Below are positions 1,258-47,088 of a stretch of 64,000 nucleotides of DNA, piece by piece. The stretch spans positions 32,001 to 96,000 of the forward strand of contig CAXXQS010000003.1 of assembly GCA_963674735.2 (NCBI GenBank), given 5' to 3'. A program made the position numbers and the translations under genes. A model generated the notes under the pieces. That model was not told the origin of the DNA. It saw only the letters and a program-made list of their open reading frames with translations, and searched no databases. Origin of the DNA: Myxococcota bacterium. GTDB taxonomy: Bacteria; Myxococcota_A; SURF-8. Positions within the stretch are counted from its first letter, which is position 1; every line of letters starts with the position of its first letter.

Positions 1258-2078
1258 CGCCGCCACCCGCCACCTGTGACTAATAGAACTTCGTTGAGAC
1301 GGCTGAAGTCCACAGCCGGTTCGATTTTGGCTTCCTGGAAAATCCCGAAATCGTTGCGACTCACTTCAACCACGCGACCTAACAAAAGGCCGGCCGGGAA
1401 TTGCTGATCGAGTCCTGATGTGATGATTTCGTCTCCCGCCCGCACATCCTCCGTTCTTAAAGAGAAGGCGAACTGGCAGATCAGTTGGTCACGTTCGGAT
1501 ACGCCCTGAATGATGCCGCGAGCTCCGGTGCGTCGCACCAACCCATCGATGGAACTGTTGGAGTCGATCATGAGCAAGACTCGTGCACTGCGGTCGTGCA
1601 ACTCGATGACGCGACCCACGACGCCCGCTTCCGTCACGACGGCCGGATTCCCGCTGAGTCCATCCGCACGTCCGGTGTTGATGGTGATGCTGCGGAATTG
1701 GCTTAGGATGTTGGTGGCAATGACACGGGCGGGGCTGTATTGCAGCGGGACCCGTCGAGTAAAGCCAAGTAGGCGGCGCAACCGTGCATTCTCTTGTTCG
1801 ATAAGGCTCTGATCGGCAATCTGGCGACTCAAACGACGGTTGATGTCCCGCAGATCTTCGGCTTCTCTTTCGGTGTTCCACAGGGCGATATAACCATTCC
1901 ATAGGCTCGCCACGCCGTCAACGACCGCTACCACGGCTTCCTGGATCGGTCCGGCGATACCAACGACGACACGTCGCGAACCGCTGATTTTATCAGGTGG
2001 ATCGTAGAGAGCCTTCCCGGCGATCAGAATCAGAGCCAGTGCCAGGATGATCACGAAATGACGGCGGAGGAATCCCAT
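1254..2078 (-). CDS. mreC: rod shape-determining protein MreC
   Basis: N-terminal TM helix, coiled coil ENARLRRLL, G-V-V-G-R-V, GDEIITSGL..FPAGL, PAVDFSRL; follows mreB. Confidence 0.95.
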   Translation of the reverse strand: MGFLRRHFVIILALALILIAGKALYDPPDKISGSRRVVVGIAGPIQEAVVAVVDGVASLWNGYIALWNTEREAEDLRDINRRLSRQIADQSLIEQENARLRRLLGFTRRVPLQYSPARVIATNILSQFRSITINTGRADGLSGNPAVVTEAGVVGRVIELHDRSARVLLMIDSNSSIDGLVRRTGARGIIQGVSERDQLICQFAFSLRTEDVRAGDEIITSGLDQQFPAGLLLGRVVEVSRNDFGIFQEAKIEPAVDFSRLNEVLLVTGGGWRR

Positions 2079-2093
2079 GCGGAAACGGTCCGT

Positions 2094-3170
<1,077 letters not shown>

Positions 3171-3280
3171 TTACCCATCGTGTCCCTTGTTTACCAGATT
3201 CATCGATTGGCCGCAAGCGGCTTTTGCGCTTGGATTGTAGATACTTGGAGGTTGTTGTTCTCGTTTTGGCGAATTAGGCC

Positions 3281-22251: not shown

Positions 22252-22289
22252 AAACGGACGCGCTTTCAGGTGCGTCCGTTTCGTTTATT
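22252..22289 (+). terminator. intrinsic terminator
   Basis: AAACGGACGC...GCGTCCGTTT followed by a T-rich tail. Confidence 0.75.
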
Positions 22290-22454
22290 GCGCCGTTGGG
22301 TCGATTGGCCAATCCCAGGATCGAAAGTTGAAAGAAAGTTTCAGAGCGTGCTATGGTTTGATCATCGATAAGCAGACCAAAGAGGGAATCAAAAAGTGAC
22401 AGATGCTCTCCATCAAGCGAATGTGGATCAGTCGGCAATATAGAAGGGGCAGGC

Positions 22455-23609
22455 ATGCGACCGATTGTGAAAATCTTGATCATCAACGGTATTTTTATGC
22501 TGGTCATTCTGGCTATTGCCGAATGGGCGGCGCGTAAGCTTTTCGATAATGCCTTTTTGCTTGAAGGCAACCAGTACGTTTTTTTCGAGTTCGACGAGCA
22601 ACTTGGTTGGCGGGGGAAAGCCAATACTAAGGGGATGTTTACTCGTGGCGAAGAATTTTCCACTCAGGTGAACACCAATCGTTTCGGAATGCGGGAACGG
22701 GAGGTCAGAAAAAAGAAAGAAGACGGTGTGATCCGGATTGCCGTACTCGGTGATTCCTTTACCTGGGGTTTCGGCGTCGAAACCGACGAAATCTATACCG
22801 CCGTTATGCAGCGTGAACTCGGTTCCCGTTTCGAAGTGCTGAACTTCGGGGTCAGTGGTTATGGACGTGGCCAACAGTGGCTACAATTGGAAAGCCAGGT
22901 GGCCGATTTTTCAGCGGATCTCGTGCTGATTATGGCTTATCCGGGCAACGATCTCTACGACAACCTGGCCGATGATCTCGCCTACGAAGTCTACCCGCGT
23001 CCGCGCTTTTCCCTCGACGACAAGGGACAGCTGGTTGTTTTGGGGCAGCCGGTGAAACCGCCATTGGGAGATTTTTCCGAGCGCTTGTTCATGCGACACA
23101 CGGGAGAATGGATGGGTGTCTATATGCGTTCTTATCTGTTTCGGGTGCTTTATCAAGTTTTTGCCTCGATGCAAAAATCCTGGGAGCAGAATCCGGCTGA
23201 TTACCTCAATCCCATTTATCAGCAGCACAATCGCCAAAAACTCAAAGAAGCGGCGAGGGTGGAAACCGCAATTCTTAAAAAAATCCGATCTTTTTGCCGC
23301 GCACAAGGGTGCAAGGTATTAGAGGCAATCGCCACAACTTCCGAACAGGTGCGACCGGCTTTGCAGGATGAATTGAGGAAACGTTTTCCCGATATCCCGG
23401 TTGACTGGGAGCAGCCTGCGCGGATTTTGACGGAAGCGGCTACGCGGGCAGGTGTCGATATCTACGATCTGGCTCCGGTTCTAAAAGCTGCCGAGGAGCG
23501 TGGGGAGCGCACGCATCGTGAAAAGGATTTCCACTGGACGCCGTTGGGCAATCGTCTTGTAGGGGAAACGCTGGCTCCGGTTGTGCGGAACATGATGGAA
23601 CGACGCTAG
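22455..23609 (+). CDS. SGNH/GDSL hydrolase family protein (AlgX/AlgJ-like, membrane anchored)
   Basis: LGDSFTWG, NFGVSGYG, GND, DFHWT..GN; N-terminal TM helix. Confidence 0.88.
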   Translation: MRPIVKILIINGIFMLVILAIAEWAARKLFDNAFLLEGNQYVFFEFDEQLGWRGKANTKGMFTRGEEFSTQVNTNRFGMREREVRKKKEDGVIRIAVLGDSFTWGFGVETDEIYTAVMQRELGSRFEVLNFGVSGYGRGQQWLQLESQVADFSADLVLIMAYPGNDLYDNLADDLAYEVYPRPRFSLDDKGQLVVLGQPVKPPLGDFSERLFMRHTGEWMGVYMRSYLFRVLYQVFASMQKSWEQNPADYLNPIYQQHNRQKLKEAARVETAILKKIRSFCRAQGCKVLEAIATTSEQVRPALQDELRKRFPDIPVDWEQPARILTEAATRAGVDIYDLAPVLKAAEERGERTHREKDFHWTPLGNRLVGETLAPVVRNMMERR

Positions 23610-23729
23610 CAGCGATCCTTCAATTCCAATAATATGTTGCGATTTTCATTTCTCCAGGTTTAGAATACCTCCTTGCGCAGATTTATTTTTTGTCCTTCAC
23701 CCAACGATACGCATGTTTAATACCAATCG

Positions 23730-25478
23730 ATGACGTCTAATTTGCCGAAACGCTACATCGCGATTCCCCTGGTGGTCCTGGCGGCCTACCTGTCGCCCTA
23801 CTTGATTTTGGGGCAGGATCATTACGTTCGTATTCACGACTATCTGGATAGCGTACTGGTTTTCTATAAAATACTCGCGCAAAGCGGCTTGATTTTCGCA
23901 CCCAACCAGGCCATCGTACCGAATTTGATGGGTGGGTTGGAACGTGCTTGGTGGCCCAGTGAGGTGAACGTATTTTTATGGTTTAACGTGTGGTTCGGAC
24001 CCTTCGGCGCGACAGCCGCCAACGAAGTCATCAGCCGGTTGGTGGCTTTTTTCGGCATGTTTTTATTCGTGCGGCGCTTCATCTTGTCCGATGAGCGTCC
24101 TCCGCTTGTGGCGGTGCTGGCCGGATTGTGTTTTGCCCTCGTCCCGCACTTTCCCGGGTCGCGCCTTTCCATCGTCGCCCAGCCGCTGGTTTTGTATGTC
24201 TTTCTCACGATCCGCGCCCGCCAAGATAAATGGCGTCACTGGCTGGTGCTGATTTTCGTTCCTTTCTATTCAAGTTTCGTTGTTTATTATTTTTTCTTTC
24301 TTGCATCCATGGGGACTCTCTGGTTGATCGACACCCTTCGCAAGCGACGTCCGGATTGGCGGTTTGTGGCCAGTATCGCGTTGATGACGGCTGTGTTTCT
24401 AGGCCTCGAATTCCGGTTGGTACAGACCATGCTGCTGGATGCCCAAGTGGTATCACATCGGGCGGAATTCACATATTACCAGGATCGCAACCTGGTCGAT
24501 GCGGCCTCTCGTTTCGTTGACAATCTGAAAAACGCCCACCATCATGGGTATAGCTTCCATTGGCCGGTGGTGGTGTTCACGGTTCTCCTGGCGGGCATCT
24601 GGGGTGGTATCCAGCGCCGTCGTCTACGAATCTATATGTTGCTGGTGGCGGGCATCGTTTTTTGCAGCCTCGCCAATGGGTTGTATTACTCGCCGGTAGT
24701 CGAGGCGTTATATCGGGTTGCCCCCATCACACGGCATTTCAACATTTCGCGCTTCAACCTGTTGCACCCGCTATTATGGTATCTGCTGTTTGCCGTGTCT
24801 TTGGCGATGATCGAAAAGTTGTCGAAAAACGGGCGCATACTTGTTTTGCTTCTGGCTGGATTGCAGGTGGCCTATTTATTTTATAACAGCGATTTTAGTC
24901 GTGAATATCGCGAACATGGAATCAGCTACCGACAATTCTATGCCGAGGAGTTGTTTGATGAGGTCGAGGCGGCCATTGGGGAACCGAAAGAAAGCTATCG
25001 GGTGGCCGTGATCGGTATGCACCCGGCGATCCCCCTGTATAACGGTTTTCATACCGTCGGCGGCTATTTTTACAATTATCCGCTAGCGTACAAACATGCC
25101 TTTTACCGGATTATTCGCCACGAATTGGCGAAAAGCCCGCATTGGAAGGGCTTGTTTGTTAACTGGGGCAGTATGGCTTACGTTTACTCGGCTGAGCTTA
25201 GCGAGGCCGACTATCTGATACCCCGCCTGCATCGGAATATCAACCACCTGGAACTTGATCCCAAAGCCTTGTGGAACCTTGGCGGACGTTATGTGATTTC
25301 GGCGTTGCCCATTGCCAATCCTGCCGATAACCGACTCACACCATTGCGTGCTTTTACCCACCCGGACAGCGCCTGGAATGTTTTTCTTTACCGGTTGGAA
25401 AAACCTGCTACGAAAGAAGAAGAGCAGAGTCCGGCAACGAATTCAATCGAGCCCGATCGCCTTCCACCTTCCGAGTAG
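23730..25478 (+). CDS. DUF6044/YkoS-like multi-pass membrane protein (putative GT-C glycosyltransferase)
   Basis: RIHDYLDS loop after TM1, many TM helices, IGMHPAI..YNGF...GY..YPL.YK..F..II..EL. Confidence 0.72.
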   Translation: MTSNLPKRYIAIPLVVLAAYLSPYLILGQDHYVRIHDYLDSVLVFYKILAQSGLIFAPNQAIVPNLMGGLERAWWPSEVNVFLWFNVWFGPFGATAANEVISRLVAFFGMFLFVRRFILSDERPPLVAVLAGLCFALVPHFPGSRLSIVAQPLVLYVFLTIRARQDKWRHWLVLIFVPFYSSFVVYYFFFLASMGTLWLIDTLRKRRPDWRFVASIALMTAVFLGLEFRLVQTMLLDAQVVSHRAEFTYYQDRNLVDAASRFVDNLKNAHHHGYSFHWPVVVFTVLLAGIWGGIQRRRLRIYMLLVAGIVFCSLANGLYYSPVVEALYRVAPITRHFNISRFNLLHPLLWYLLFAVSLAMIEKLSKNGRILVLLLAGLQVAYLFYNSDFSREYREHGISYRQFYAEELFDEVEAAIGEPKESYRVAVIGMHPAIPLYNGFHTVGGYFYNYPLAYKHAFYRIIRHELAKSPHWKGLFVNWGSMAYVYSAELSEADYLIPRLHRNINHLELDPKALWNLGGRYVISALPIANPADNRLTPLRAFTHPDSAWNVFLYRLEKPATKEEEQSPATNSIEPDRLPPSE

Positions 25479-25540
25479 CGCATCCCTAAACCGACTGTGG
25501 TATAATCCCGCCGAATTTGAACCCCGTGTAAGGAGAAGCG

Positions 25541-26677
25541 ATGTCCGGCCACATTCCTTTCAACCGGCCTTCGATGACGGGTCGTGAGATGGATTACATT
25601 CTGGATGCCATTCAGCGCGGCCATATTGCCGCCGGTGGACACTATACCTCCCGGTGCGAGCGCCTGCTTGAAGAGTCGTTGGGTGTGAAAAAAGCCCTGA
25701 TTACCCCGTCTTGTACGCATGCCCTTGAAATGGCGGCGCTGCTGCTCGATCTCAAGCCCGGCGACGAGTTTATTTGCCCGTCTTTTACCTTCGTTTCTAC
25801 CGCCAATGCTTTTGTCTTGCGCGGAGCCAAACCGCAGTTTGTGGATATTCGCCCTGATACACTTAATCTCGATGAGACGAAAATCGAAGCCGCCATTACC
25901 GAGCGGACCCGTGCCATCGTGCCGGTGCATTATGCCGGAGTAGGTTGCGAAATGGACCGCATTCGCGACATCGCCGACCGCCATGGGCTCCAGGTGGTGG
26001 AAGATAACGCTCAGGGACTCTACGGCACATATCGGGAGCGCCCTTTGGGCGGTTTCGGCGAGCTGGCGACAGTGAGTTTTCACGAAACCAAGAACTTCAC
26101 CTGCGGAGAGGGCGGGGTGCTGCTGGTGAACGATCCACGCTATATCGAACGTGCGGAAATTATTCGCGAAAAAGGTACCAACCGCAACCGCTTCCGTCGT
26201 GGTCAGGTGGACAAATATACCTGGGTGGATATTGGATCCAGTTATCTTCTTTCCGATCTGTGTGCGGCGTTCTTGCTGGCCCAGCTTGAAAATCGACAAA
26301 CCATACAAGAAACGCGTCGTGCCTTGTGGGAGCAATACGCGAAGGGTCTTGCCGACTGGGCGGGTGCCAACGAAGTCGGCCTGCCACAGTGCCCGGAGCA
26401 TTGCCAGCATACTTCTCATTTATTCTACCTGCTGATGCCGTCCATCGATAGTCGTCAGGCACTCATCGATCATTTGAAGGCGCATGAAATCATGGCTGTT
26501 TTTCATTATATCCCGCTGCACGATTCGGATATGGGGTTGCGTTACGGGTATCATCATGGCGATCTCCCGGTAACTGAGGATATCTCCGACCGACTTTTAA
26601 GGTTACCGCTTTATAACGGCATGACAGCGGAAGAACAGAATCGTGTGATGGCGGCGGTCAGGGGTTTTGTGGTTTGA
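25541..26677 (+). CDS. wecE: dTDP-4-amino-4,6-dideoxygalactose transaminase
   Basis: IPFNRP, TPSCTHALEMAA, PSFTFVSTANAF, SFHETKN, GEGG, EKGTNR..F.RGQVDKYTW, FHYIPLH. Confidence 0.95.
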   Translation: MSGHIPFNRPSMTGREMDYILDAIQRGHIAAGGHYTSRCERLLEESLGVKKALITPSCTHALEMAALLLDLKPGDEFICPSFTFVSTANAFVLRGAKPQFVDIRPDTLNLDETKIEAAITERTRAIVPVHYAGVGCEMDRIRDIADRHGLQVVEDNAQGLYGTYRERPLGGFGELATVSFHETKNFTCGEGGVLLVNDPRYIERAEIIREKGTNRNRFRRGQVDKYTWVDIGSSYLLSDLCAAFLLAQLENRQTIQETRRALWEQYAKGLADWAGANEVGLPQCPEHCQHTSHLFYLLMPSIDSRQALIDHLKAHEIMAVFHYIPLHDSDMGLRYGYHHGDLPVTEDISDRLLRLPLYNGMTAEEQNRVMAAVRGFVV

Positions 26678-27686
26678 GATGCGGACCCTGGGTCGCGTGC
26701 ACAATGCCACCGGTGAGATACACGACCAGACGCGCCAGAAAGATCAGGAAACACAGCATCAAGGCGTCGGAGAGCGGCACTCCGAGTTGAACCAACAAGA
26801 AGGTAAGCGTTCCTTCGCGGATTCCTACCCCACCGAGCGAAATAGGAAGAATGGTGATCAGGTTGGCCAGAGGCATGACTAACAGCATCTGCAGCAAGCC
26901 GATTTCCAGCCCTAAAGCCTGAGCTAGGCAAAAGGCTCCCAAGAAGTCACAGAATTGATAGCCGCTGCTGAGAATGAGAGCTTTTGGCCAAGTCCCGGAT
27001 GGAGCCTCGCTTAGCGTGTGTGCGAGCATGAAAGTTCGGTTCCATAAAGCGCTCCACCCATGATGGGTATTGTGTGGTCGAGGCAACCGGCTTGACAGAA
27101 AAAGCAGAGAAGCCAGTGCAAGCAACCCGACTCCCGCGGCAAGAGGAAGGAATATCCGCAAAGAGACTCCGGCCGCTTCAATGGCGGGAATGGGAGTGAA
27201 AAACGACATACAGGCGGCAAGAATCAACAAGCCCGTAAAACCCATAGTGCGTTCGGCAAGAACGGTCATTCCGGCTTTCACGGCCAATTTGGTGCGTGTT
27301 CGCGCGTAGAGCAAGATGCGCAGAGCGTCACTGCCGAACCAGCCCGGCAGGATGATGGCATAGTAACTGGCAGAAAGATATAGGATAAAAGGTTCCAGCC
27401 AGCCTATCGGCAGGCCGAAGGCTTTGAGTAACAAACGCCAGCGTTGCCCCGCGATGAAAAGACCGGTAATGGATAAAAGGGGGGCGATCCAAGCGATGCG
27501 CCAGTTGGTGCGTGCCAACACGTCGCGAGCACGTTCCCAGTCGGTGACATAGATCAAGTACGATACGATCCCGAGCGATACCGCTAGCTTGAGTGCGAAT
27601 AGCAAACGGCCGCGCCAGGGCTTGGGAGCCGGTGCGATGGATGAGGTGGAGGGTTCGATCATCGATGTCTGTTTTTGCGTACTCAA
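26658..27686 (-). CDS. lysylphosphatidylglycerol synthase TM region / UPF0104 flippase-like membrane protein
   Basis: LKLAVSLG, RWRLLL, LPGWFGSD..R, ER, LPISLGGVGIRE; start may be 27662. Confidence 0.85.
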   Translation of the reverse strand: MSTQKQTSMIEPSTSSIAPAPKPWRGRLLFALKLAVSLGIVSYLIYVTDWERARDVLARTNWRIAWIAPLLSITGLFIAGQRWRLLLKAFGLPIGWLEPFILYLSASYYAIILPGWFGSDALRILLYARTRTKLAVKAGMTVLAERTMGFTGLLILAACMSFFTPIPAIEAAGVSLRIFLPLAAGVGLLALASLLFLSSRLPRPHNTHHGWSALWNRTFMLAHTLSEAPSGTWPKALILSSGYQFCDFLGAFCLAQALGLEIGLLQMLLVMPLANLITILPISLGGVGIREGTLTFLLVQLGVPLSDALMLCFLIFLARLVVYLTGGIVHATQGPHLKPQNP

Positions 27687-27689
27687 ATC

Positions 27690-28913
27690 TTAATCCTGGC
27701 TCTTGTCGCTTTCGGCAGGAGTTACTCGAATCGTCACCTCATCGACGAAGTCGAGAAGCTGACGTCGTGCCGAGTCGTAGCTGTCGGTTTCGGTCGTGAT
27801 CATCATCAGGCGCGCTCCGTCGTGCTCGACTCCTTCCAATTGCACGCCATTGGGACGCAAACGGCGTGAGCTGGTAATGCAATGGCGCTCGAAAGCACCT
27901 TCCGGGATCTCCATATCCGAAAGTGTTCCCCGCTGGTCGGTTGTCAGGAAATAACTGCCATAATAGCTGTTATTACAAGCTTTTGGCGGGTCAGGAAGCT
28001 CTCCCAGAGCAAGGCGAATCGTTGCACCGTACACGTCGTAGTTCCATTTCGAGGGAACGAGTCGGGCCATAATGGCGCCGCCTGCCAGCCGGGGGCCGAT
28101 GTCGATGATACGAGGTTCCCCTTCTTTGTCGATGGCCATGTCGATATGGGTGGGACCCCATTGAATACCCAAACGCCGAATGGCTTCGGCATTGGCTTTG
28201 AGGACGCGCTGCTGGATTTCCGTCGGCAGAGCTGAAGGAAAAAGGACTCCGAGAGTTACGTTTCGGGCAGCCGGGTGGATGAGTTTATCGGCGATCGTCA
28301 TGACATGAACGTGACCGTCGAATACCATCGATTCAACACCCAATATAGGACCATCGATGAATTCCTCGATGACCACTTCCGTCGTGCGGCTATGTCGCCG
28401 GGCACATGAAAACGCTTCGCGAATAAGTGAATGGTCATCGGTGTTTACACGGGATATTCCTTTGCCTCCGCCTCCGTCGGCAGGTTTGAAAGCCAGCGGA
28501 TAAGTTAACGGCGATTGTTTTGCGAGCGCGTCTTCGAAGCTTGTGGCGATCACTCCTTTGGGAGTCAGATCGCCTAATAGACGCCGAAAACGGTCTTTGT
28601 AGACTGCGTTGAGGGAGGCGGCATAGGAAATGAAATGGCGACTGAGAGACAGCTTCTCGGTGACATAGGCGCAGGTGCAAATTGCGGTGCTGGTGCCGCA
28701 GGTGACGAGTCCCCGGATGTCCTCGCGTTTTGCCAGATCAAGTACCGTGTCGTGATCGGCCGTATCGATGGGCAGGAAGAGATCGGCCGCTTCGGCTGCT
28801 GCCGGTTTGGCTTCTCCGGCACCGATTACAATCGCCCGATAGCCCAACTCCTGGGCTTTTTCAACCAGCGGAATCTGATTGTAGGTCGCTCCGAGAATGC
28901 AGATCGATTTCAT
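27690..28913 (-). CDS. ATP-grasp domain ligase
   Basis: ILGA...Q, NAVYKDRFR, KPADGGGGKGI, IEEFIDG, GPTHID, IIDIGPRLAGG. Confidence 0.9.
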   Translation of the reverse strand: MKSICILGATYNQIPLVEKAQELGYRAIVIGAGEAKPAAAEAADLFLPIDTADHDTVLDLAKREDIRGLVTCGTSTAICTCAYVTEKLSLSRHFISYAASLNAVYKDRFRRLLGDLTPKGVIATSFEDALAKQSPLTYPLAFKPADGGGGKGISRVNTDDHSLIREAFSCARRHSRTTEVVIEEFIDGPILGVESMVFDGHVHVMTIADKLIHPAARNVTLGVLFPSALPTEIQQRVLKANAEAIRRLGIQWGPTHIDMAIDKEGEPRIIDIGPRLAGGAIMARLVPSKWNYDVYGATIRLALGELPDPPKACNNSYYGSYFLTTDQRGTLSDMEIPEGAFERHCITSSRRLRPNGVQLEGVEHDGARLMMITTETDSYDSARRQLLDFVDEVTIRVTPAESDKSQD

Positions 28914-30034
28914 GGGTGATTACCGTTCAAGCCGGATTCGTTAACAATTTCCATGATTTTATCGGCAGAACAGTCTGCTAAACCGAGGTGTTCAAGCGTG
29001 CGGCCGTCGGCTCGGTAGTCGCGGTTGTGGATACGCCCGGCCAGACGTATCAGCATATCCGCCATCGGAGTCGGGACTCCGAGTTTGCGGCCCAATGAAT
29101 CAATCGGGACAAGTCCTGTCGGCACATCATCGGTGATGTAGCGGTGATCCAGCGTACGTGGGGCCTCGATCGTCCGGTAGTAATCGGTATCCTGCAAGGC
29201 GGTGAAGAGGTCGTTGCCCCGGCTTCCGTAGTTTTCATTCAGCCATTGGCAGGTGGAAATCATCGACAATCCGAGTTTCCGACCCACGGCCATGCGCTCT
29301 CCATCGAGTTCTTCAAGGAGTTGCGCGACGGAGGGTGTGATTCCGTCGTAGTAATACATGAATTGAGTTCGATCGGTCTCGATCCAGCCCATGTTGAGGA
29401 GAGTCGGCAACGGGTGAAGAATGGCTCCCACGCTATTCAAACCGGTTTCCAGGATGTTGGAGGCTTTCTGAAATACCGGTAACAACTCATTCAACGTTGT
29501 CAACACCTCGTCGCTACGAGTGGCCGGGAATGCGGCGAGACGAACAGCCGGTTTGACGCAGATAATGTCTACGATTTCGGCTTCAATGTTGCGGCAGGTG
29601 TGTACGAGCGTATTGGTTTCCGCCAAGGTGATATCGGCGCATAAGCCCGCCGTTAAAAGGGCTCTGTAGAATTCGATCGAGCCGAACAACCTGCCGGGAT
29701 TGAGGAGAAGGATCTGTCCGTCGACGAGATGCGGGGCGCATAACTCGGCAAGCTCCGCATGGGCGTTCGCGGTTACCGTAAGCATGACCAATTCCGCACT
29801 TTCCAGTGCTTTGCGAATATCGCTGGTAACGGTTGCGATACGACCCGTACCCGATACGACACCGGTAAGTTTCAGTTCAGGGTTTTGGTGCAAGCCCGCG
29901 AGACGGGCTTCGCTGCGGTTGTAGAGGGTTATCCGGTGTCCGAGAAGTGCGAGATGACCGGCGAGAGCTTTTCCCCCGTTGCCCCCTCCGATAACGGTAA
30001 TTCTGCGGGTAGAAGTGGAAGTCATGTTGCACAT
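28910..30034 (-). CDS. NAD/NADP octopine/nopaline (opine) dehydrogenase
   Basis: VIGGGNGG.A.A, LNPGR..G, AETNTL, N.GAILHP, FMYYYDG.T, LDGER, HRYITDDVPTGLVP, GVPTP, GRTL. Confidence 0.92.
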   Translation of the reverse strand: MCNMTSTSTRRITVIGGGNGGKALAGHLALLGHRITLYNRSEARLAGLHQNPELKLTGVVSGTGRIATVTSDIRKALESAELVMLTVTANAHAELAELCAPHLVDGQILLLNPGRLFGSIEFYRALLTAGLCADITLAETNTLVHTCRNIEAEIVDIICVKPAVRLAAFPATRSDEVLTTLNELLPVFQKASNILETGLNSVGAILHPLPTLLNMGWIETDRTQFMYYYDGITPSVAQLLEELDGERMAVGRKLGLSMISTCQWLNENYGSRGNDLFTALQDTDYYRTIEAPRTLDHRYITDDVPTGLVPIDSLGRKLGVPTPMADMLIRLAGRIHNRDYRADGRTLEHLGLADCSADKIMEIVNESGLNGNHP

Positions 30035-31926
30035 GTATCCTTGTCAAATGAACCGTCGTGTTCGCGCATCCTGGCCAGACGATCCAGCCGAGCGGCGACA
30101 TCGAGGGGTTGTCCACGTTCATTCACCAATTCCGTACCGCCGTTGATCAGTCGGCTGTTCCAGTCGACGGCATGTGGGAATGTTTCCCGGCAATTCCATA
30201 GATTGGGAACCGGCAGGTAGCCTTCTTCGAAGATGCGATAAAGGCCCGCTGCTGAATAAGGATCGGGAATTCGGCGCTCGATGTCGTGTAGAATTTCGTG
30301 TGCCTCGGAAAGCAGCTGCTCGCGGCGTTCGGTTACGGTTTCCCCGCTGATGAGATCCCTCAACCCAAGCCGATTCCGCAGAGTCGGATAATGTGTCAAG
30401 GCGGCTTTTGCGATTCGTACGCTTTCGTTGATCACCTTCGGCGTGGCGAGCTGGTCGCCTTCAGAATAACTGACGACATGGAGAATCGGTGGACTGCTCG
30501 GGTTGTCGGGTTCCACGTCCGTCATCAGCGCGGTTGTCGCCGCTAATTGGATTTTTGCCTTGTCGAGATCGGGAGAAAAATAATCCAAACCGGCACGTGG
30601 CTGATAGATGATATGAAAAGACGAATCCGCCAGGCTACCGACTAGAGATAAAAGGGCACGCGCCTTGGCCAGATCGTTGAGCCCCGACGAAGCTTTCGGT
30701 AGATTCAACATGTTTTGCAACACCAGATAACCGACTCCGGCTTTCTTGGCTGTCCTTGCCGCCAAGTAGGAACTTACAAGATAGGTGACATCGTCTGCAC
30801 CGCGAAAGGCGAAATGGTGCGGGACGTTGGGTTCGAAAGGACGTCCACAGCGAGCGATATAGCGGATCGCGGCAAGATGTTCGTCCAGGTTTTGTTTGAC
30901 GGAATTGGGACCCCGGCCGTCGATTTCCGAAAACCACCAGAGTGAGAGTGCGTGCCAGGCGTTATGCAGGCTACGTTCTAAAATTTTGGCCATTTCGACA
31001 ACGTGTTTCGACCCGGAATAGGCGCGCACCAGCATGGGTTGGGCGGCTTTCCAGATCGTTGCAAACTCACGTTCGTCATGGATTGGGGTGCCGCCCCCGT
31101 TGATACGTCCCGCCCAACTCTCGCCGAAGGCCGATTGAGTCAGTTGGGACGAGCCGATGGACGCGATGTCGAGCCAACCTGCTTTTGCAAGTTGTCGGAC
31201 CCAGTCGATAAGGCGTTTCACGGCCTCCAGACGGTTCGATTGATAGGGGCCGACGTGGGCACGGAACAAGGGCAGTCGTCCTGCTTTAGCTGCATGGGTG
31301 AGGCGCAGGATCAAATGGTCGTTGGGGGAGCCCATTTCCGGATAATTCAAGGGTGAAGGCGGTTGTTGGGCTAAGTGAGCCTCGCTGCCTAACAGATCGT
31401 TCCCGAAGTCCATGCGTTCGTTGTCGTATTCAGCGGTGGTTTGAATCGCCTGAGGAATTTTTTCTTCAGGAATTCCGAGCAGACGTAGGGTCTGAAGCGG
31501 AGTTTCATCTCCCATGAAGACCGGAAAACGCCTTTGGAATACCCGTTCGATCCGTCTGCATGCGTCGGGTAACCCAGCGAAATAGAGAGATTTGATTGTG
31601 CCACCCGTTCCGGTGTCCAGCAGCTTTTCGGCGGTGAGTCGCACGACGAAGTGTTCGAAAATCGTTGTTGCTTGATCCGGGTCGAGTCTGTAGCTGATAC
31701 CAAGTCGTGTGATGCCGTGTCGGCGAACCCAATCACACACTTGTGCAAAAGCGAGAGGGGATTCCATGTTTTCGGCTGCGGTAGCAATGGTATTGTCTGC
31801 ACTGTAAACCCGATAGCCGCAATCCTCCAGCAGATCGGCCACGGCACTTAGGCCCAATGTATGCGCGTCCGTGTACGGCTTGATCAGTCCGAAAACGTCC
31901 GTCTGGCCGCAATGGATGTCGGGCAT
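30022..31926 (-). CDS. cobalamin-binding protein: N-terminal B12 Rossmann domain fused to a glutamate-mutase-like TIM barrel
   Basis: DAHTLG (DxHxxG), GISYRL (SxL-like), YFAG; then RAHVGP, NGGGTPI, AKKAGV, NDLAKARAL. Confidence 0.78.
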   Translation of the reverse strand: MPDIHCGQTDVFGLIKPYTDAHTLGLSAVADLLEDCGYRVYSADNTIATAAENMESPLAFAQVCDWVRRHGITRLGISYRLDPDQATTIFEHFVVRLTAEKLLDTGTGGTIKSLYFAGLPDACRRIERVFQRRFPVFMGDETPLQTLRLLGIPEEKIPQAIQTTAEYDNERMDFGNDLLGSEAHLAQQPPSPLNYPEMGSPNDHLILRLTHAAKAGRLPLFRAHVGPYQSNRLEAVKRLIDWVRQLAKAGWLDIASIGSSQLTQSAFGESWAGRINGGGTPIHDEREFATIWKAAQPMLVRAYSGSKHVVEMAKILERSLHNAWHALSLWWFSEIDGRGPNSVKQNLDEHLAAIRYIARCGRPFEPNVPHHFAFRGADDVTYLVSSYLAARTAKKAGVGYLVLQNMLNLPKASSGLNDLAKARALLSLVGSLADSSFHIIYQPRAGLDYFSPDLDKAKIQLAATTALMTDVEPDNPSSPPILHVVSYSEGDQLATPKVINESVRIAKAALTHYPTLRNRLGLRDLISGETVTERREQLLSEAHEILHDIERRIPDPYSAAGLYRIFEEGYLPVPNLWNCRETFPHAVDWNSRLINGGTELVNERGQPLDVAARLDRLARMREHDGSFDKDTCAT

Positions 31927-31927
31927 C

Positions 31928-32890
31928 TCAATCGAGCTCTTTGGTGCGAATCGTTCCGGTGGGCATGCGGCGGACTTCGAAAAGAATTCGGATGAGATAT
32001 TCCCCGATGATTCCCATGGCGAAGAGCGAAACGCCGAAGAAGAAAAGCAGCAATAACACTAAGGTTGTCCAGCCTTGTATCGCGATACCGCCGAAGAGAT
32101 ATTCGCAAAAATAGTAGATACCGAGAATGGTGCTGAGAACGAAACAACCCAATCCGAGAAAGCTGACCAGCTGCAGGGGTAAAGCCGAGTTTCCAAGAAT
32201 GTTGTCAAGGCCGTTGGAAACGAGTCGGCGCAAGCTGTAACCGGACTGATCGTACTTGCGGGGATGATGTTCTACCTGAACGTTTTTCACCTGGGTGGTA
32301 ATCTGCATAAGCAACAATCCGATGCGTGGACTGAAGTTGCGGTATTCCAACAGGTGACGGGCGATTGTGCGTCGCATTACGCGAAAACTGGTGAGTTTGA
32401 GATTCGGATCGGTTTGTAGCATGTAGCAGGTCAAACGTTCGATCGTTTTGGTCGCCAGATTACGTATTGGGTGGTGTTGTTTGGTCTCGTAGGAACCCAC
32501 CACTGCATCCATGGATTCGTCTTCCCGAATGGCTGTAACGAGCTTGGGGATCTCTTCGGGCGGATGCTGCAGGTCATCGTCCATGGTGATGATCAATTCC
32601 CCGCGAGTGTGAGCGATTCCGGAGAGGATGGTGTTGTGCTGGCCGAAATTTCGGGTGTGTTGCAAGAGTTTGATCTGTGGATAAGTCTTCCGAATTTCCT
32701 TCATCAGTGTCCACGAGTTGTCTCGACTACCATCATCGACGAGCAAAATCTCGTATTCCTCACCGATGGCATCGAATACCCGAGTCAGTCTTTCACACAA
32801 TTCTCCAAGGCTTTTCGATGAGTTGTAAATAGGTACCACAACACTAAAGGCCAACGTGGCGGGATTGTGGATGCTGAGTCCTTCAGGCAT
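31928..32890 (-). CDS. undecaprenyl-phosphate glycosyltransferase, GT2 (ArnC/GtrB/YkoT-like)
   Basis: SVVVPIYN, VDDGSRD, RNFGQHN, TMDDDLQHPPEEIP, SFR, two C-terminal TM helices, GIIGEY. Confidence 0.93.
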   Translation of the reverse strand: MPEGLSIHNPATLAFSVVVPIYNSSKSLGELCERLTRVFDAIGEEYEILLVDDGSRDNSWTLMKEIRKTYPQIKLLQHTRNFGQHNTILSGIAHTRGELIITMDDDLQHPPEEIPKLVTAIREDESMDAVVGSYETKQHHPIRNLATKTIERLTCYMLQTDPNLKLTSFRVMRRTIARHLLEYRNFSPRIGLLLMQITTQVKNVQVEHHPRKYDQSGYSLRRLVSNGLDNILGNSALPLQLVSFLGLGCFVLSTILGIYYFCEYLFGGIAIQGWTTLVLLLLFFFGVSLFAMGIIGEYLIRILFEVRRMPTGTIRTKELD

Positions 32891-36398: not shown

Positions 36399-36851
36399 CT
36401 AGGCAGGGAGTTGTACTTGTTTACGCAGCTTGATTTGGTAGGTTTCGAAACCAGCCGATTCGAAAAAAGACAACAATTCCTTATTGGTAACATCCACGTC
36501 GACCACCACCCAGTCGACTCCGTTACCGGCAAACCAAAAACCGGCGCTTTCGATTAGGCGTGAGGCGATTTGTCGGCGTTGAAATTCAGGATCTATATAC
36601 AACGTGTGAATCACCCCGCGGTCGATACCGCCGGTAAGGATGTTGTATTGCAAAATGGAGCATTCCACGAGTCCGATCGCCCGACTACCTGCTTTGGCCA
36701 GCAGCATCAGGTGGCGGTTTGAATCAATGCGTTCTTCGAGTAACTTGAATGTTTTGATTTCATTGATATCAAGCACGTTTTTTAGCAAGTCCACTACTTG
36801 GCGGATTTGCTTGGTTCCAACTTTTTGAATTTGAACGGCTTCGTTTGACAC
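36399..36851 (-). CDS. GNAT family N-acetyltransferase
   Basis: LYIDPEFQRRQIASRLI (acetyl-CoA motif A), N.....FFESAGF. Confidence 0.85.
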   Translation of the reverse strand: MSNEAVQIQKVGTKQIRQVVDLLKNVLDINEIKTFKLLEERIDSNRHLMLLAKAGSRAIGLVECSILQYNILTGGIDRGVIHTLYIDPEFQRRQIASRLIESAGFWFAGNGVDWVVVDVDVTNKELLSFFESAGFETYQIKLRKQVQLPA

Positions 36852-42644: not shown

Positions 42645-44522
42645 CTAATTGTGCGCTTCGGCTGTTTCGGTTTGTCGTGGCGACCAGGCAGAGTTGGTCT
42701 TAACCGCCGCTTGAATCAGTCGTTGCATGGCCGTCAATTTGGTATCGCGGGGTGGACGATACGACGTGACCCCTTGATAGCCATTCAGCAGATCTCCCCC
42801 TTTATATTCGAACGTTCGGGTTTTCCCGAATAATTGATTGGGGGTTCGCAACCACATATCTTGCAACGATGACCAGACCGCTTCGCCTCCATTGGGTCCG
42901 AACAGGTCGTGACCCAGGAAACTATTCGGGGTTTTCAACTTGAGCAGGTTCAGCAGAGTCGGGGCGATGTCGATCTGAGATACGATTTTATCGTAGCGCC
43001 CGGCCGGAATCAAGCCCGGTGCGTAAATTACCAAAGGAACACGGTTGTGTTGGTCGTGAAAATCGCCCAGCGTGGCCGGTTTTTTGTCGAAAAGATCGTG
43101 TCCGTGATCGCCGGTTATCACGAAAATGGTATTCGAAAACCAGGCTTCTCCACGGATGGCCTCGAAGAATTCACCCAGTGCTTTATCCGAATATGTTACC
43201 GCTTGTCGGTAGCGTCCGATAGCCGTTTCGGCGCGCTTAGCTTCTTCGGGTGGCACATTAAACGGGAAATGGCTGCTGAGCGTCATAATGTGTGCGAAAA
43301 ACGGTTCCGGCTTGCGATTCAGGATCTCGTGCACTTTCGCATAGAGGACAAAATCGTTGGCTCCGTAGATGGAGATATCGTCGGGAGGACCGAAGGTTTC
43401 GAGATCGTAAAAATGCCGGATACCGTGGACACTCTGAAAATCGAAGGTGCCTTGGAAGGTCTTTTTCGTTCCGCACATCCAATTGGTGTTGTAACCCGCG
43501 TCCGCCAAAATGGAAGGTAAGCAGCGTAAAGGTAAGTCGGCATGTTCCATGTAAATGGACGGTCCGGGGGGTTCGATAAACGAGCATAAGCTTGAAAATT
43601 CACCGAAAACGGTTTGGGAACCCGAGGCGTAGGTGTTTGTGAACAAGGCTCCGTTTTGGGCGAGTCGGGCCAGATTGGGAGCATAGCTCTTATTGCCGAG
43701 TAGCCCGCTTTCAAGCATTCGGAATGATTCGAGAAAGAGCGTAACCACGTTGTATCTCAGCGGTTTGTCGGGGGTGTTGACCGCTTCCGGAATCATGCGA
43801 AAGATGGAGCCCGGCTGCGGGTCGCGTTGCCATCCTTTGTCGACGGGACCGAACAGTCGTGTGAGGTGATCGTTACAGCGGTCGGAGTGGAACGATTGGG
43901 GATCGTTACCGAGTCCGCAGTCGATCAGGGCTTGTTCGCCACTATCGCCGTGTCCGACATCTTCGATCAAACGGGCGTTGGCGGAAAGTCCCAAAGTCGG
44001 AAAAATAATCCAGAACAAGCCGAAAGTCATCCAGAGCGAAATCAACGGCGGACGGGGGAAAGCGATCCCCTCGCGCCTGATGATATAGCACAGCACGCCC
44101 AAAGCCAGTGGGACGCCAAAGGCCAATCCCAGAGCGGCCGGTTCAACCAAGGTGATAGCGGATCCGGCAAATTCGGTGGCGTCGGACGCATAGGCCAGGA
44201 TCAGGCGGAGGTCGAGATGGTGGCCATAGAACGTGTAAAAGGCTTCGTCGGAGAAAAAGAGAATCGCTGATAGGAGTGTGAGCAGAATCAGCAGACCGTT
44301 TCCGAGCCGTTTCACCCCATATTCTAAAACCCACGCGCCGGTTATAGCCAAGGCTATCCACAATAACCAGTTTTGCAGGGCTCCGAGATGGGCGGCGGCT
44401 TCCGACCATTCGCTTCGAAAGGCACTCACAAACACGAGCAGTCCGATCTGGTGCAGAATGAACGCCGGGTAAAACCAAAGATCGGGCTTTGGACGAGGGG
44501 GGGTCAGGGCTGTGTTCGCCAT
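42645..44522 (-). CDS. LTA synthase / OpgB-like phosphoglycerol transferase family protein
   Basis: About 5 N-terminal TM helices, NVV..FLESF, Thr nucleophile in SQTVFGE, TLSSHFPF, YSD..LG.F, GDHG. Confidence 0.85.
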   Translation of the reverse strand: MANTALTPPRPKPDLWFYPAFILHQIGLLVFVSAFRSEWSEAAAHLGALQNWLLWIALAITGAWVLEYGVKRLGNGLLILLTLLSAILFFSDEAFYTFYGHHLDLRLILAYASDATEFAGSAITLVEPAALGLAFGVPLALGVLCYIIRREGIAFPRPPLISLWMTFGLFWIIFPTLGLSANARLIEDVGHGDSGEQALIDCGLGNDPQSFHSDRCNDHLTRLFGPVDKGWQRDPQPGSIFRMIPEAVNTPDKPLRYNVVTLFLESFRMLESGLLGNKSYAPNLARLAQNGALFTNTYASGSQTVFGEFSSLCSFIEPPGPSIYMEHADLPLRCLPSILADAGYNTNWMCGTKKTFQGTFDFQSVHGIRHFYDLETFGPPDDISIYGANDFVLYAKVHEILNRKPEPFFAHIMTLSSHFPFNVPPEEAKRAETAIGRYRQAVTYSDKALGEFFEAIRGEAWFSNTIFVITGDHGHDLFDKKPATLGDFHDQHNRVPLVIYAPGLIPAGRYDKIVSQIDIAPTLLNLLKLKTPNSFLGHDLFGPNGGEAVWSSLQDMWLRTPNQLFGKTRTFEYKGGDLLNGYQGVTSYRPPRDTKLTAMQRLIQAAVKTNSAWSPRQTETAEAHN

Positions 44523-45445
44523 GCCTGCTCCAATTCCATACCATAGGACGGATCGTCGAAAAGGACGGCCGATAGAATACCGGCTTTGACCATGCGCCGA
44601 AGCTGGTCGAGGTTTTGTTCGCGGGATTCCACCGTATAGGCAACTACCTGCAAAGTGGAACCTTTCAACAAATTGATGAGGGCTGTTGTTTTTTCGGGTG
44701 TCAGGCGACGAAAATCAACCATTGATACAGGCAGTTCGAGGTCGAGTGCCCGTTTAATCGCATAGAAATTGAAAGAATCGAACGTGGCTGGAATTCCACG
44801 TGAAATCAGTGCCTCAACGACCGGGATGCGGTAGCTGGTGTAAATGAGATTGGGAGGGCGGGGTAAATCTTTGATTGCATTCAAGATTAGATCGATTGGG
44901 ATGGCCGTTTTGATTTCGGCCATCACGAATCCATAGGCTGCACTCACCTCATTGATGAAGGCCTCGTCATACAGGGCGATTGGGTGCCCGCTTTTGAGGC
45001 GGCAACGGGTGTGCAACTCATGCCAATTGAGTGATAAGGGAGCCCAGTCGTCATCATCGTTGTGTTGGTTGCATGTGCTGACGCGGCTAAGATTCGTGTC
45101 GTGTAAGAGGACGAAACGGCCGTCTTTTGTTAAGGTCAGATCGAACTCGGCTCCCTTGGCGAAGCGAGCGGCGGCCAAAATCCCCTCTCGAGAGTTTTCT
45201 GTGTAGGGCTCGCCCGGCAATACTCCCCGGTGGCTGACCACCTGAAAGAGACGTTCTCCTTTTTCGATAGAGAAAACAAAAGGCTTGACGACAATGTCAG
45301 ACTCTTTGTTGAGGGGACGGTGTCGAAAACGGGGAAGGTCATTTGTGTTGCTACCCTTTTCACAGCTACTCAGCATAAGGATACAAAGCAGGATCACGGC
45401 GATCAGGTTTTGTGTCGATTCAGCTTGTTTTGCAGATCCTGTCAC
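44504..45445 (-). CDS. glycerophosphodiester phosphodiesterase lipoprotein
   Basis: Lipobox LSSC; SHRG...EN, EFDL.LTKDG..VLLHD..L.R, EIK, YTV. Confidence 0.85.
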   Translation of the reverse strand: MTGSAKQAESTQNLIAVILLCILMLSSCEKGSNTNDLPRFRHRPLNKESDIVVKPFVFSIEKGERLFQVVSHRGVLPGEPYTENSREGILAAARFAKGAEFDLTLTKDGRFVLLHDTNLSRVSTCNQHNDDDDWAPLSLNWHELHTRCRLKSGHPIALYDEAFINEVSAAYGFVMAEIKTAIPIDLILNAIKDLPRPPNLIYTSYRIPVVEALISRGIPATFDSFNFYAIKRALDLELPVSMVDFRRLTPEKTTALINLLKGSTLQVVAYTVESREQNLDQLRRMVKAGILSAVLFDDPSYGMELEQAWRTQP

Positions 45446-45496
45446 GCTTGTAGCCTCTCGGAAATCAACTTGGCGAGTATAGTCAAAAGCTCGGAT

Positions 45497-46960
45497 TTAT
45501 TCCAGTTTTTCTTGTTGCTGTGGTGCCGGACATCCTAGGCGGCTGCGAGTTTGTCTAATAAGCTGTTTTACGGCTGCCGGTGGCAAGCGCATCCAGAACA
45601 AGGGGGGAGGCGTATCGAAAACCGCATTCTCGGGCCATTCCAATTGAATGGCGCCAGCCACCGGGCTTACCCAGCGGGCGGTGGCTTCGAAGGAACTGTC
45701 CGGCAGGTCGGGGATGGCAAGGGTGAAAACGGCACGACCACCCGGATTCAACTCGACAGCCGAGATACGGAATTCCGTTTCCACCTCGCCCAGTTGCAGG
45801 AATAATGTTTCATCAGATCTGAATTGCAATTCAGCCGGGATTTGGTTGCAGGGTAGCCGGGTCAAAACTGGGGCGACTTGCGTGATCGGTCCGCTATTGG
45901 GGTTGACATAGGGAACCGGATACCAGGATCCGGCGAGGTAATCATTGACCGCTTCCTTATCCATCAGCAATTGCTCGATCGGAGTGATGGAATTAAACTC
46001 CGCGGCCAGGAGGTACAAGCTGATTTCCTGGCTTTTCAGGAAACCGTATAGCTTTTTGAGGGTGTTTTTACGAAGTATTGAATTCTTTTTAGAGGTTACG
46101 TCCAGGTCTGTTTCTACTTGAGGACGATCGGTATAGAAAGGAATCAGCAGTCGCTTTTTCGGGTGGATCAGCCAGATATCGGCGAGTTTTTTATCCCCAG
46201 GCAGATTGTTGTACAGCATGCCCGCCGATTTGTTTTCGATGTATGCCCAGCCCGGATCCACTCCGACCATGATGTGTCTGGCGCTGATCCAGCCGCTATG
46301 CTGACCGGCGTCGACGAGGTATTGAGTTTCTTCGGCTTGTCCACGTCGGTCCAAAACGTCGAGGACCTGCCAGGGATGGACTTCATAGGAGGACAGGTCC
46401 GAATTGGAGGGATTTTTCGATATGAGTTGCGTTTTCTGCAGAACCACACCTAGATCGGGTGTCTTCTTCCAGATTTTCATACAGGCCGAATAAACACCGC
46501 GGGCTTGCTGAACGTCTTTGGCGGAAAGGTGCCCCATTCCGCGTTTGCGATCGAAGGCAAGGAGCCCGAAATTGGTGGCGCAGGAATCGATTTCCCCGAC
46601 GATTCCCTGTTTGATGCGAACGATCAATTTATCCCCACGCGTGCGAAGAATATTCAGCTTTTCGCCGAGCTTCAGTGTGAGCTTTTTTTTGTTTTCGACA
46701 TTTTCCGTTTCCAGTGTTGCTTTGGAGGTCCACACTCGCACCGTCATACCGTATGTGTCGGGGCGTGTGATCGGCAGGCCAAGACGTAAGGGTTCCTCCT
46801 TGACTTCCGGAGTATCGGACACTTCTGGGTTGGGGATGAGTAGCGTAGGCTTTTCCGGTTGTTTGTCCGATGAGCAGCGTGAACACGACACGATCCCGAT
46901 CGTCGTAAGAAGTACAAACACGGCGGCGAGGATCGGCATGTGGAAGTAAGAGCGAATCAT
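45497..46960 (-). CDS. hypothetical exported lipoprotein, possibly with SH3b-like segments
   Basis: Signal with IVSC; L.LGEKL.IL....D...VR....VGEI and DVLD.......YLVD.....GWI patterns; start uncertain (46960, 46939 or 47017). Confidence 0.6.
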   Translation of the reverse strand: MIRSYFHMPILAAVFVLLTTIGIVSCSRCSSDKQPEKPTLLIPNPEVSDTPEVKEEPLRLGLPITRPDTYGMTVRVWTSKATLETENVENKKKLTLKLGEKLNILRTRGDKLIVRIKQGIVGEIDSCATNFGLLAFDRKRGMGHLSAKDVQQARGVYSACMKIWKKTPDLGVVLQKTQLISKNPSNSDLSSYEVHPWQVLDVLDRRGQAEETQYLVDAGQHSGWISARHIMVGVDPGWAYIENKSAGMLYNNLPGDKKLADIWLIHPKKRLLIPFYTDRPQVETDLDVTSKKNSILRKNTLKKLYGFLKSQEISLYLLAAEFNSITPIEQLLMDKEAVNDYLAGSWYPVPYVNPNSGPITQVAPVLTRLPCNQIPAELQFRSDETLFLQLGEVETEFRISAVELNPGGRAVFTLAIPDLPDSSFEATARWVSPVAGAIQLEWPENAVFDTPPPLFWMRLPPAAVKQLIRQTRSRLGCPAPQQQEKLE

Positions 46961-47088
46961 GAGTTTCTTTTCTCCTTCCCAAATGGGTATCCCCCATGAT
47001 AAAAAGCCTTTCGACACAAGTCAAACACCGCTTTTAAATCCGCATGCCGATTCGGGGGCGGAAACGTGACCAAGCAGGCCGTACAAGG

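Follow-up and report, generated by a model that had tools for sequence, protein, structure and literature searches.

A glutamate mutase-like B12 protein and an opine dehydrogenase in a candidate Arn-like glycosylation cassette of a Myxococcota bacterium

Adenosylcobalamin (AdoCbl) isomerases make up a short list that grows slowly. Among them, glutamate mutase (GlmS/GlmE; 1cb7, 6h9e) combines a cobalamin-binding Rossmann domain carrying a DxHxxG motif with a TIM barrel; it is built from two subunits, has methylaspartase as its partner in a fermentation operon, and has a MutL/GlmL gene alongside. Zhang, Rodionov, Gelfand and Gladyshev predicted a further B12-dependent family in 2009 (PMC2667541). 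In the available text of that report, the family has a distant N-terminal B12-binding domain, its gene is "always adjacent" to a PF02317 octopine/nopaline dehydrogenase gene with D-Ala:D-Ala ligase and asparagine synthase genes nearby, and members come from 11 genomes of four phyla; that text contains no glycan context, no glutamate mutase fold and no experiment (PMC2667541). Here we analyze a 64,000-nucleotide stretch of a Myxococcota bacterium genome (GCA_963674735.2, contig CAXXQS010000003.1, positions 32,001 to 96,000), hereafter the window, in which eight genes at 22455-32890 encode a B12 mutase-like protein of 634 amino acids (aa; P0001), an opine dehydrogenase (ODH), an ATP-grasp ligase and proteins of lipid-carrier glycosylation type (Table 1). 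With a probability of roughly 0.5, these genes form an Arn-like cassette, accessory in its lineage, for glycosylation through a lipid carrier, with a module of its own for the acyl donor; we infer every chemical step. The 634-aa protein has the two domains of glutamate mutase, but in one chain with the B12 domain N-terminal, at 13-14% identity to GlmE and below the PF02310 and PF06368 cut-offs, and its partner is an opine dehydrogenase in a glycan cassette.

The sugar-handling part of the cassette is closest to Arn (ArnB, ArnA, ArnC, ArnE/F, ArnT) and to the Gtr, CsbB-YfhO and YkoT-YkoS systems, with which it has in common a DegT-family 4-aminotransferase, an ArnC-like family 2 glycosyltransferase (GT2) and candidates for the flippase and for the multi-pass transferase. 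In the cassette, as in Arn, the amino sugar would be N-acylated before it is loaded on the lipid. Arn uses UDP-4-amino-4-deoxyarabinose (UDP-Ara4N), whereas the cassette would use a dTDP-6-deoxyhexose; the flippase is ArnE/F or GtrA in Arn/Gtr, whereas in the cassette a PF03706 protein is the candidate, with a DUF6044 protein as candidate transferase. The acyl group of Arn is formate, whereas that of the cassette would be an opine-type acid attached by the ATP-grasp enzyme. A further comparison is the alanopine-containing glycan of Providencia alcalifaciens O35, for which we know of no B12 enzyme. According to the available text of PMC10609480, its O-antigen contains alanopine-acylated 4-amino-4,6-dideoxyglucose (Qui4N), likewise an opine amide-linked to the 4-amino-4,6-dideoxyhexose of a surface glycan, with an acyl group that is alanine-derived. 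It is a precedent for the pathway proposed here; an earlier note on this DNA had stated that opine-acylated 4-amino sugars occur in some O-antigens.

The gene content and the tightly packed minus-strand unit described in the earlier note were borne out by open reading frame (ORF) coordinates and by Pfam and NCBIfam scans, with the same order, gaps and overlaps. Five genes make up this unit, encoding the GT2, the 634-aa protein, the ODH (Octopine_DH), the ATP-grasp enzyme and a flippase-like protein (LPG_synthase_TM); the first two genes are 1 nt apart, the next two junctions overlap by 13 and 4 nt, and 3 nt separate the last two genes. Plus-strand genes for an SGNH protein, the DUF6044 protein and WecE converge with it, the 3' ends of wecE and the flippase-like gene overlapping by 20 nt. 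A Pfam scan of the window proteins found no acetyltransferase inside the cassette. The nearest GNAT gene (36399-36851) is separated from it by ImuA-like and acetyl-CoA synthetase genes, in keeping with the earlier observation that no WecD-type acetyltransferase accompanies wecE.

The 634-aa protein matched no Pfam or NCBIfam model at E ≤ 0.01. PDB sequence searches with the protein and its 20-member profile gave chance matches only (E 0.36 or higher), and tblastn against 72,556 plasmids gave no match. Its relatives number at least 2852 at E ≤ 0.001 among 7999 scored candidates; they are about 50% identical across phyla and are labeled by NCBI as "cobalamin-binding protein" or hypothetical. In an AlphaFold2 model from the 20-member alignment (mean predicted local distance difference test score, pLDDT, 85.5), a cobalamin-binding domain occupies the N-terminus (about residues 1-160) and is followed by a TIM barrel like that of GlmE (about residues 199-616). 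The best structural match of residues 199-616 is GlmE (1cb7_B; Z 25.7, root-mean-square deviation (rmsd) 3.6, 378 aa). The barrels of lysine 5,6-aminomutase (8t0v, 1xrs; Z 24.9) and ornithine 4,5-aminomutase (3kow; Z 22.9) are nearly as similar, and the next, non-mutase tier is found at Z 16.8 or lower. GlmE is also the top Foldseek match of the protein (E 6.3e-12). As modeled, the 634-aa protein is therefore a single-chain relative of AdoCbl-dependent glutamate mutase, by family or fold. A methyltransferase-type reading, as in MetH and corrinoid-protein systems, was considered and rejected, with folate- and pterin-binding barrels at Z of about 13-15 versus 23-26 for the mutases.

The N-terminal 165 residues, modeled alone, gave a pLDDT of 90.0, and the ten best matches of this model are all cobalamin-binding domains, led by HcmB (4r3u_D; Z 13.3, rmsd 2.2, 123 aa); the B12 domain of ornithine 4,5-aminomutase matches at Z 10.9. 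The DxHxxG motif is present as DAHTLG at residues 20-25. To follow this motif, we used the best 80 loci from a pattern scan of 185,579 species genomes, at least 468 of which have a relative of the protein. These loci gave 77 relatives, from which three N-terminally cut ones were left out; the His of xHxxG is kept in 74 of 74, with D in the first position in 70, E in three and G in one. PF02310 matches 15 of 20 family members and PF06368 one of 20, all below threshold. The label "B12-binding protein" given in the earlier note thus fails at the Pfam threshold, where the 634-aa protein scores 16.1 bits on PF02310 versus a cut-off of 32.1, and holds by fold and motif. In AdoCbl aminomutases that also use pyridoxal phosphate (PLP), the PLP-binding lysine is located in the B12-binding domain. 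An N-domain alignment of 25 members has no invariant or near-invariant Lys in its conserved columns, which sets the family apart from these enzymes.

It could also be that the 634-aa protein is no B12-dependent catalyst, and is instead a sensor or a barrel enzyme, with a flavodoxin-like N-terminal domain in which the cofactor has been lost or altered. The low PF02310 score would fit such a protein, as would CheY-like receivers, which match the N-domain model from Z 10.4 down, near the best cobalamin domain. Canonical cobalamin-binding domains carry downstream SxL and GG motifs; these look altered by eye in the family, to SYRL and AG. Against this stand the invariant His, the cobalamin domains that occupy all ten top fold matches, a barrel that groups specifically with AdoCbl mutases, and paralogs fused to MutL. 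We therefore give little credence to a protein without B12.

These fusions came from a profile search of 1.84 billion representative proteins, which returned 566 at E ≤ 0.001. Among 17 of these superfamily members that were scanned, three (P0168, P0198 and P0227; 826-1266 aa) join a mutase-like protein to MutL (PF13941), the reactivase family of glutamate mutase. One other paralog (P0163; 863 aa) is a fusion of a mutase-like protein to a RimK/GshB-type ATP-grasp; it is 29% identical to the 634-aa protein over 574 aa (E 1e-66) and lies above the PF06368 cut-off (27.5 versus 26.6 bits). In Clostridium ultunense, at L083:373-2007 (+), the non-adjacent ODH is followed directly by a 544-aa paralog, P0121, that is 35% identical to the barrel of the 634-aa protein (E 8e-55), scores 29.9 bits on PF02310 and has CVHVAG in place of DxHxxG. 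Together with its P0001-type gene, the C. ultunense genome thus has two superfamily members.

Judged by its genes, the source genome uses B12, because two cobalamin riboswitches and seven PF02310 proteins above the cut-off are found outside the window. In this genome no PF06368 (GlmE) gene was found, and the window has no MutL. On another contig, a gene of the MutL family (C1:1451736-1453166 (-), locus L135:5359-7239; 406 bits) could serve the 634-aa enzyme; it adjoins an acyl-CoA dehydrogenase-like gene and genes with no assignment. A search for true GlmE in 121 Bacteroidia yielded two sequences above the cut-off. Thirty of the 121 have an ORF, in most cases about 520-550 aa long, that weakly matches PF06368 (E 9.5e-6 to 9.6e-4) at model positions of about 204-375; these frames (L085-L102 and others) are not P0001-like at E 1e-20.

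The second enzyme, the ODH, scores 166.2 bits on PF02317, for which the cut-off is 30, and is similar over its full length (residues 10-360) to Arthrobacter CENDH/ArODH (1bg6), so that the opine dehydrogenase assignment of the earlier note is upheld. In the 1bg6 alignment, R115 corresponds to A111 of ArODH and G203 to N198, and R40 occupies the NADPH position 35. All 43 partner ODHs examined carry the Arg/Gly pair, and 39 of them have the NADPH-position Arg; the His matching ArODH H202 is invariant in all 43. According to the available text of PMC10787698, mutagenesis showed that preference shifts to L-Asp and L-Glu when ArODH position 111 is Arg and position 198 is Gly; Arg at position 35 is reported there to mark NADPH use (PMC10787698). 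Aligned in this way, the ODH carries the residue pair that selects acidic amino acids, if the signature has the meaning given there, and it has in common with ArODH and the mODHs of that study both this signature and the NADPH Arg. The window enzyme differs in being coupled to a B12 mutase-like enzyme; the available text of PMC10787698 mentions neither "cobalamin" nor "B12".

The neighbors of the mutase gene in the 80 loci were counted with the window proteins as phmmer queries (E < 1e-5). An ODH is near the mutase gene in 42/80 loci, DegT/WecE in 13/80, the ATP-grasp in 12/80, GT2 in 4/80 and PF03706 in 3/80. Where at least 1300 nt were available on both sides, the ODH was found in 35 of 54 loci; of the 61 loci with upstream sequence, 33 have it as the immediate upstream neighbor on the same strand. 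Where the two genes are not adjacent, an orthologous ODH is present elsewhere in the genome in all five genomes tested. Neither gene was found in 40 relatives of the source genome (DUF6044 is present in two of them); a sample of 120 other Bacteroidia, taken around a carrier, likewise yielded neither. This makes the cassette accessory in its lineage, and the mutase and ODH genes have the same phyletic pattern. What is conserved at the core is the dehydrogenase-mutase pair. This pair was already predicted in print in 2009, as far as the available text of PMC2667541 can be matched by description; the family members of that report may correspond to the 544-aa paralog type.

The third enzyme proposed for the module was confirmed as an ATP-grasp protein and resembles L-amino-acid ligases. 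It exceeds the cut-offs of PF02786 (39.4 versus 19.8 bits), PF13535 (37.6 versus 27) and PF02655 (38.1 versus 23.2), and its best PDB match is the L-amino-acid ligase BL00235 (3vot). Eleven of the 12 ATP-grasp loci also carry a DegT-family sugar 4-aminotransferase, the twelfth (L013) being a cut-short locus. The earlier note had made its reading depend on the trio co-occurring elsewhere with sugar aminotransferases or glycosyltransferases, and it does so in these 11 loci, in glycan or flagellin-glycosylation contexts. Two Arn-like cassettes (L036 and L040) contain the same mixture as the window, with an ArnC-like GT2, PF03706, ODH, mutase, ATP-grasp and WecE. One Bacteroides locus (L062) is a capsule (CPS) locus, where Wzx, a Wzy-like gene and other glycosyltransferases accompany an initiating GT4. 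In Azoarcus indigens DSM 12121 (L031), flagellin is followed by two GT41/tetratricopeptide repeat (TPR) proteins, the ODH and the mutase, with the ATP-grasp, DegT and a large glycosyltransferase convergent. DesI is a dTDP-4-keto-6-deoxyglucose aminotransferase. It is the best match, below the cut-off, of six other DegT proteins tested, whereas the DegT proteins of L036 and L040 are WecE above the cut-off. The ATP-grasps of nine other glycan loci form one group at 29-60% identity; the window enzyme, whose identity to the ATP-grasp of L013 is 48%, is not the orthologue of those in the other glycan loci. A class I S-adenosylmethionine (SAM) methyltransferase gene adjoins the mutase or ATP-grasp gene in three loci (L013:1805-2587, L040:13069-13914 and L024:11865-12671); its recurrence suggests that the product, or else the sugar, may be methylated.

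As a unit, the B12-ODH-ATP-grasp trio of the earlier note stands only in part, since it recurs in glycan loci but its core is the pair, and about 68 of the 80 loci have the pair outside glycan loci. The product of the pair is therefore not glycan-specific. Loci of Planctomycetota, Planctomycetes-Verrucomicrobia-Chlamydiae (PVC) and delta-proteobacteria have the ODH fused to a phosphotransferase system (PTS) EIIA domain, with MscS channels and AsnB-like enzymes on the flanks of the pair. Amino-acid ABC transporters lie beside it in Firmicutes, and the Aminicenantes copies are among housekeeping genes. Given these varied contexts, the pair would make a metabolite with several uses, glycan decoration among them. 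In one metagenome-assembled genome of Planctomycetales (L029), two nhaA-I (Li+/Na+) riboswitches at 5535-5588 and 6378-6431 (+), with 48 and 49.3 bits against a gathering score of 37, lie upstream of the EIIA-ODH, mutase and AsnB-like genes; none was found in the other six EIIA-ODH loci scanned (1/7 positive). In an Aminicenantes locus (L129), the ODH is directly downstream of a PF03706 gene (2769-3785 (-), 1456-2616 (-)), away from the mutase gene.

These contexts bear on an unlikely but not negligible account, in which the mutase, ODH and ATP-grasp make a free acidic solute or a dipeptide-like stress metabolite that PF03706 exports, and the sugar genes are independent neighbors. The preponderance of loci outside glycan contexts, the MscS channels, EIIA-ODH fusions and amidating AsnB-like enzymes beside the pair, and the nhaA-I riboswitches of the one locus all suit it, as do the Aminicenantes ODH behind PF03706, with no sugar genes within the 4-kb locus, and a ligase whose nearest solved relative is an L-amino-acid ligase. 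It is harder to reconcile with the GT2 and mutase genes lying 1 nt apart within one five-gene unit, with the recurrence of the mixture, WecE included, in L036 and L040, and with the sugar 4-aminotransferase of the ATP-grasp loci. Less probable by far is that the pair is catabolic and degrades an imported opine or acidic amino acid, with glycan genes adjacent by chance. Genes for di/tricarboxylate and amino-acid transporters, peptidase M20 and a 2-oxoacid oxidoreductase near the mutase gene in C. ultunense and in an Armatimonadetes locus would suit degradation, but translational coupling with the ATP-grasp and GT2 genes in the window, the recurrent location within CPS and flagellin-glycosylation operons, and the ligase and amidating-enzyme neighbors and fusions weigh against it.

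The sugar genes of the cassette are assigned with differing confidence. WecE exceeds the cut-offs of both its models (375 for NF008687 and 434.85 for TIGR02379), a match that assigns it the making of a dTDP-4-amino-4,6-dideoxyhexose; an RmlB gene is present elsewhere in the genome, outside the window. The GT2 (PF00535, 108 bits) has two C-terminal transmembrane (TM) segments by hydrophobicity scan, at 241-259 and 277-295. ArnC (NF007986) is its best NCBIfam match, PgfS also matches (8.5e-47, under the cut-off), and it is a candidate polyprenyl-phosphate sugar synthase of ArnC/GtrB/PgfS type. The flippase-like protein scores 128.9 bits on PF03706 and has six hydrophobic segments. The DUF6044 protein has at least eight hydrophobic segments in its first 360 aa, followed by a soluble C-terminal part of about 220 aa, and is a candidate GT-C-like transferase that would move a lipid-linked sugar to its acceptor. 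Among 14 control genomes, PF19510 was found only in B. subtilis, whose YkoS we take to be a DUF6044 member. The available text of PMC11081497 describes YkoT as an undecaprenyl phosphate (UndP)-sugar synthase and YkoS as an UndP-sugar ligase (PMC11081497). The SGNH protein, with a single TM segment (residues 4-22), is probably an extracytoplasmic enzyme that acylates or deacylates the glycan. The three-component Arn/Gtr logic proposed for the locus fits a GT2 with two C-terminal TM helices, a flippase-like protein and a multi-pass DUF6044 protein.

The membership of the flippase-like protein in the MprF TM-region family raises another alternative, that the cassette adds an amino-acid derivative to the head group of a membrane lipid, as MprF does, instead of to an Und-P sugar. 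The ODH that adjoins PF03706 in L129 could be read in the same way. In the window, the flippase-like protein has no aminoacyl-phosphatidylglycerol (PG) synthase domain, the GT2 resembles the polyprenyl-phosphate type, with ArnC and PgfS as its best matches, and WecE and a GT-C-like multi-pass protein belong to the cassette. Lipid modification is therefore regarded as quite improbable.

For the Arn-like glycosylation reading, the following steps are proposed. WecE would supply the dTDP-4-amino-4,6-dideoxyhexose. The mutase would rearrange a glutamate- or aspartate-type acidic amino acid or the corresponding opine, acting either before or after the ODH. With NADPH as reductant, the ODH would join the acidic amino acid to pyruvate by reductive condensation and so form an N-(1-carboxyethyl) polycarboxylate. 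The ATP-grasp enzyme would activate one carboxylate and amidate the 4-amino group of the sugar nucleotide, at the place that formylation has in Arn. The ArnC-like GT2 would then load the acylated sugar on undecaprenyl phosphate, the PF03706 protein would flip the lipid-linked sugar, and DUF6044 would transfer the sugar to an envelope acceptor; the SGNH protein may trim or acylate it outside the membrane. A more specific form is put forward tentatively, with the odds somewhat against it: a radical, AdoCbl-dependent rearrangement of the carbon skeleton would give a branched acidic amino acid (e.g., of 3-methylaspartate type), which the ODH would turn into an N-(1-carboxyethyl) polycarboxylate for attachment by the ATP-grasp to a surface 4-amino-4,6-dideoxyhexose, and the two-enzyme module would be reused elsewhere for a free stress solute.

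Several results weigh against the glycosylation reading. Besides the loci in which the pair is outside glycan contexts, DUF6044 and SGNH are near the mutase gene in 0/80 loci each. The PF02310 match of the 634-aa protein has an E of only 0.01, PF06368 gave no match for it, and hhalign of the family with two true GlmE sequences gave a probability of 0.44, aligning the C-terminal part only; Arg66, Arg100, Arg149, Glu171 and Tyr181, the glutamate-binding residues in GlmE numbering, are present in both of those GlmE sequences. No reactivase or adenosyltransferase gene was found in the cassette. The GT2 scores 175.7 bits on the ArnC model, under the cut-off of 529. The window ATP-grasp is only 23-29% identical to those of other glycan loci, and the nearest relative with a solved structure links amino acids rather than sugars. 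The sugar-modification pathway of the earlier note is supported in part, by fold, families and recurring glycan context, but its core is a pair and not a trio, and its ATP-grasp is not the orthologue of those in the other glycan loci. A literature search returned nothing relevant on the trio or on a glycan link of the pair, and no paper on DUF6044.

Table 1. Genes of the candidate glycosylation cassette in the window.
Product	Position	Strand	Basis
SGNH/GDSL hydrolase-like, AlgX-like C-terminal part	22455-23609	+	PF13472 3.9e-12, PF16822 1.7e-07
DUF6044 multi-pass membrane protein	23730-25478	+	PF19510 3.8e-169, 564 bits
WecE, predicted dTDP-4-amino-4,6-dideoxyhexose transaminase	25541-26677	+	NF008687 583.8 bits, TIGR02379 554 bits
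Flippase-like, MprF TM-region family (LPG_synthase_TM)	26658-27686	-	PF03706 3.5e-37, TIGR00374 1.6e-14
ATP-grasp amide ligase, like L-amino-acid ligases	27690-28913	-	several ATP-grasp Pfam models above cut-off; 3vot 5e-20
Opine dehydrogenase (Octopine_DH)	28910-30034	-	PF02317 6.5e-49; 1bg6 8.7e-74
634-aa single-chain B12 mutase-like protein (P0001)	30022-31926	-	fold and DAHTLG motif
GT2, candidate ArnC/GtrB/PgfS type	31928-32890	-	PF00535 5.4e-31; ArnC 1.1e-51

An Rfam scan of the window gave no match at gathering scores, so no riboswitch appears to control the cassette. Among sequencing runs, three matching ones are on record, all from a single study and none of them RNA. Promoter-like sites number 14 in the window versus 8.2 ± 3.1 in shuffles, and terminator-like sites 15 versus 13.7 ± 3.3, both as consensus matches only. 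Two such consensus matches are found at the edge of the cassette, a 13-pair terminator-like hairpin at 22252-22281 (+), directly 3' of a gene for an 896-aa CarboxypepD_reg-domain protein, and a promoter-like site with an extended -10 at 22328-22357, upstream of the SGNH gene. Another envelope cluster, at 42645-48684 of the window, has genes for a membrane protein with a sulfatase domain, a GDPD phosphodiesterase and a 506-aa protein that matches nothing in Pfam, together with a divergently transcribed gene for MurJ.

As far as the available text of PMC2667541 goes, the mutase-like family was flagged as a prediction in 2009; with at least 2852 relatives and presence in at least 468 species genomes, it still has no assigned reaction. 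The glycan loci with a ligase and a 4-aminotransferase point to substrates, namely acidic amino acids, pyruvate, and dTDP-4-amino-4,6-dideoxygalactose (dTDP-Fuc4N) or dTDP-Qui4N, and Azoarcus indigens DSM 12121, Bacteroides fluxus and Clostridium ultunense are cultured carriers. If the proposed reading is true, the cassette would add to the known B12 reactions, would define a new class of glycan substituent and would make surface decoration dependent on the supply of vitamin B12. In the more specific form, the rearrangement would be the first step of surface-glycan biosynthesis known to need B12.

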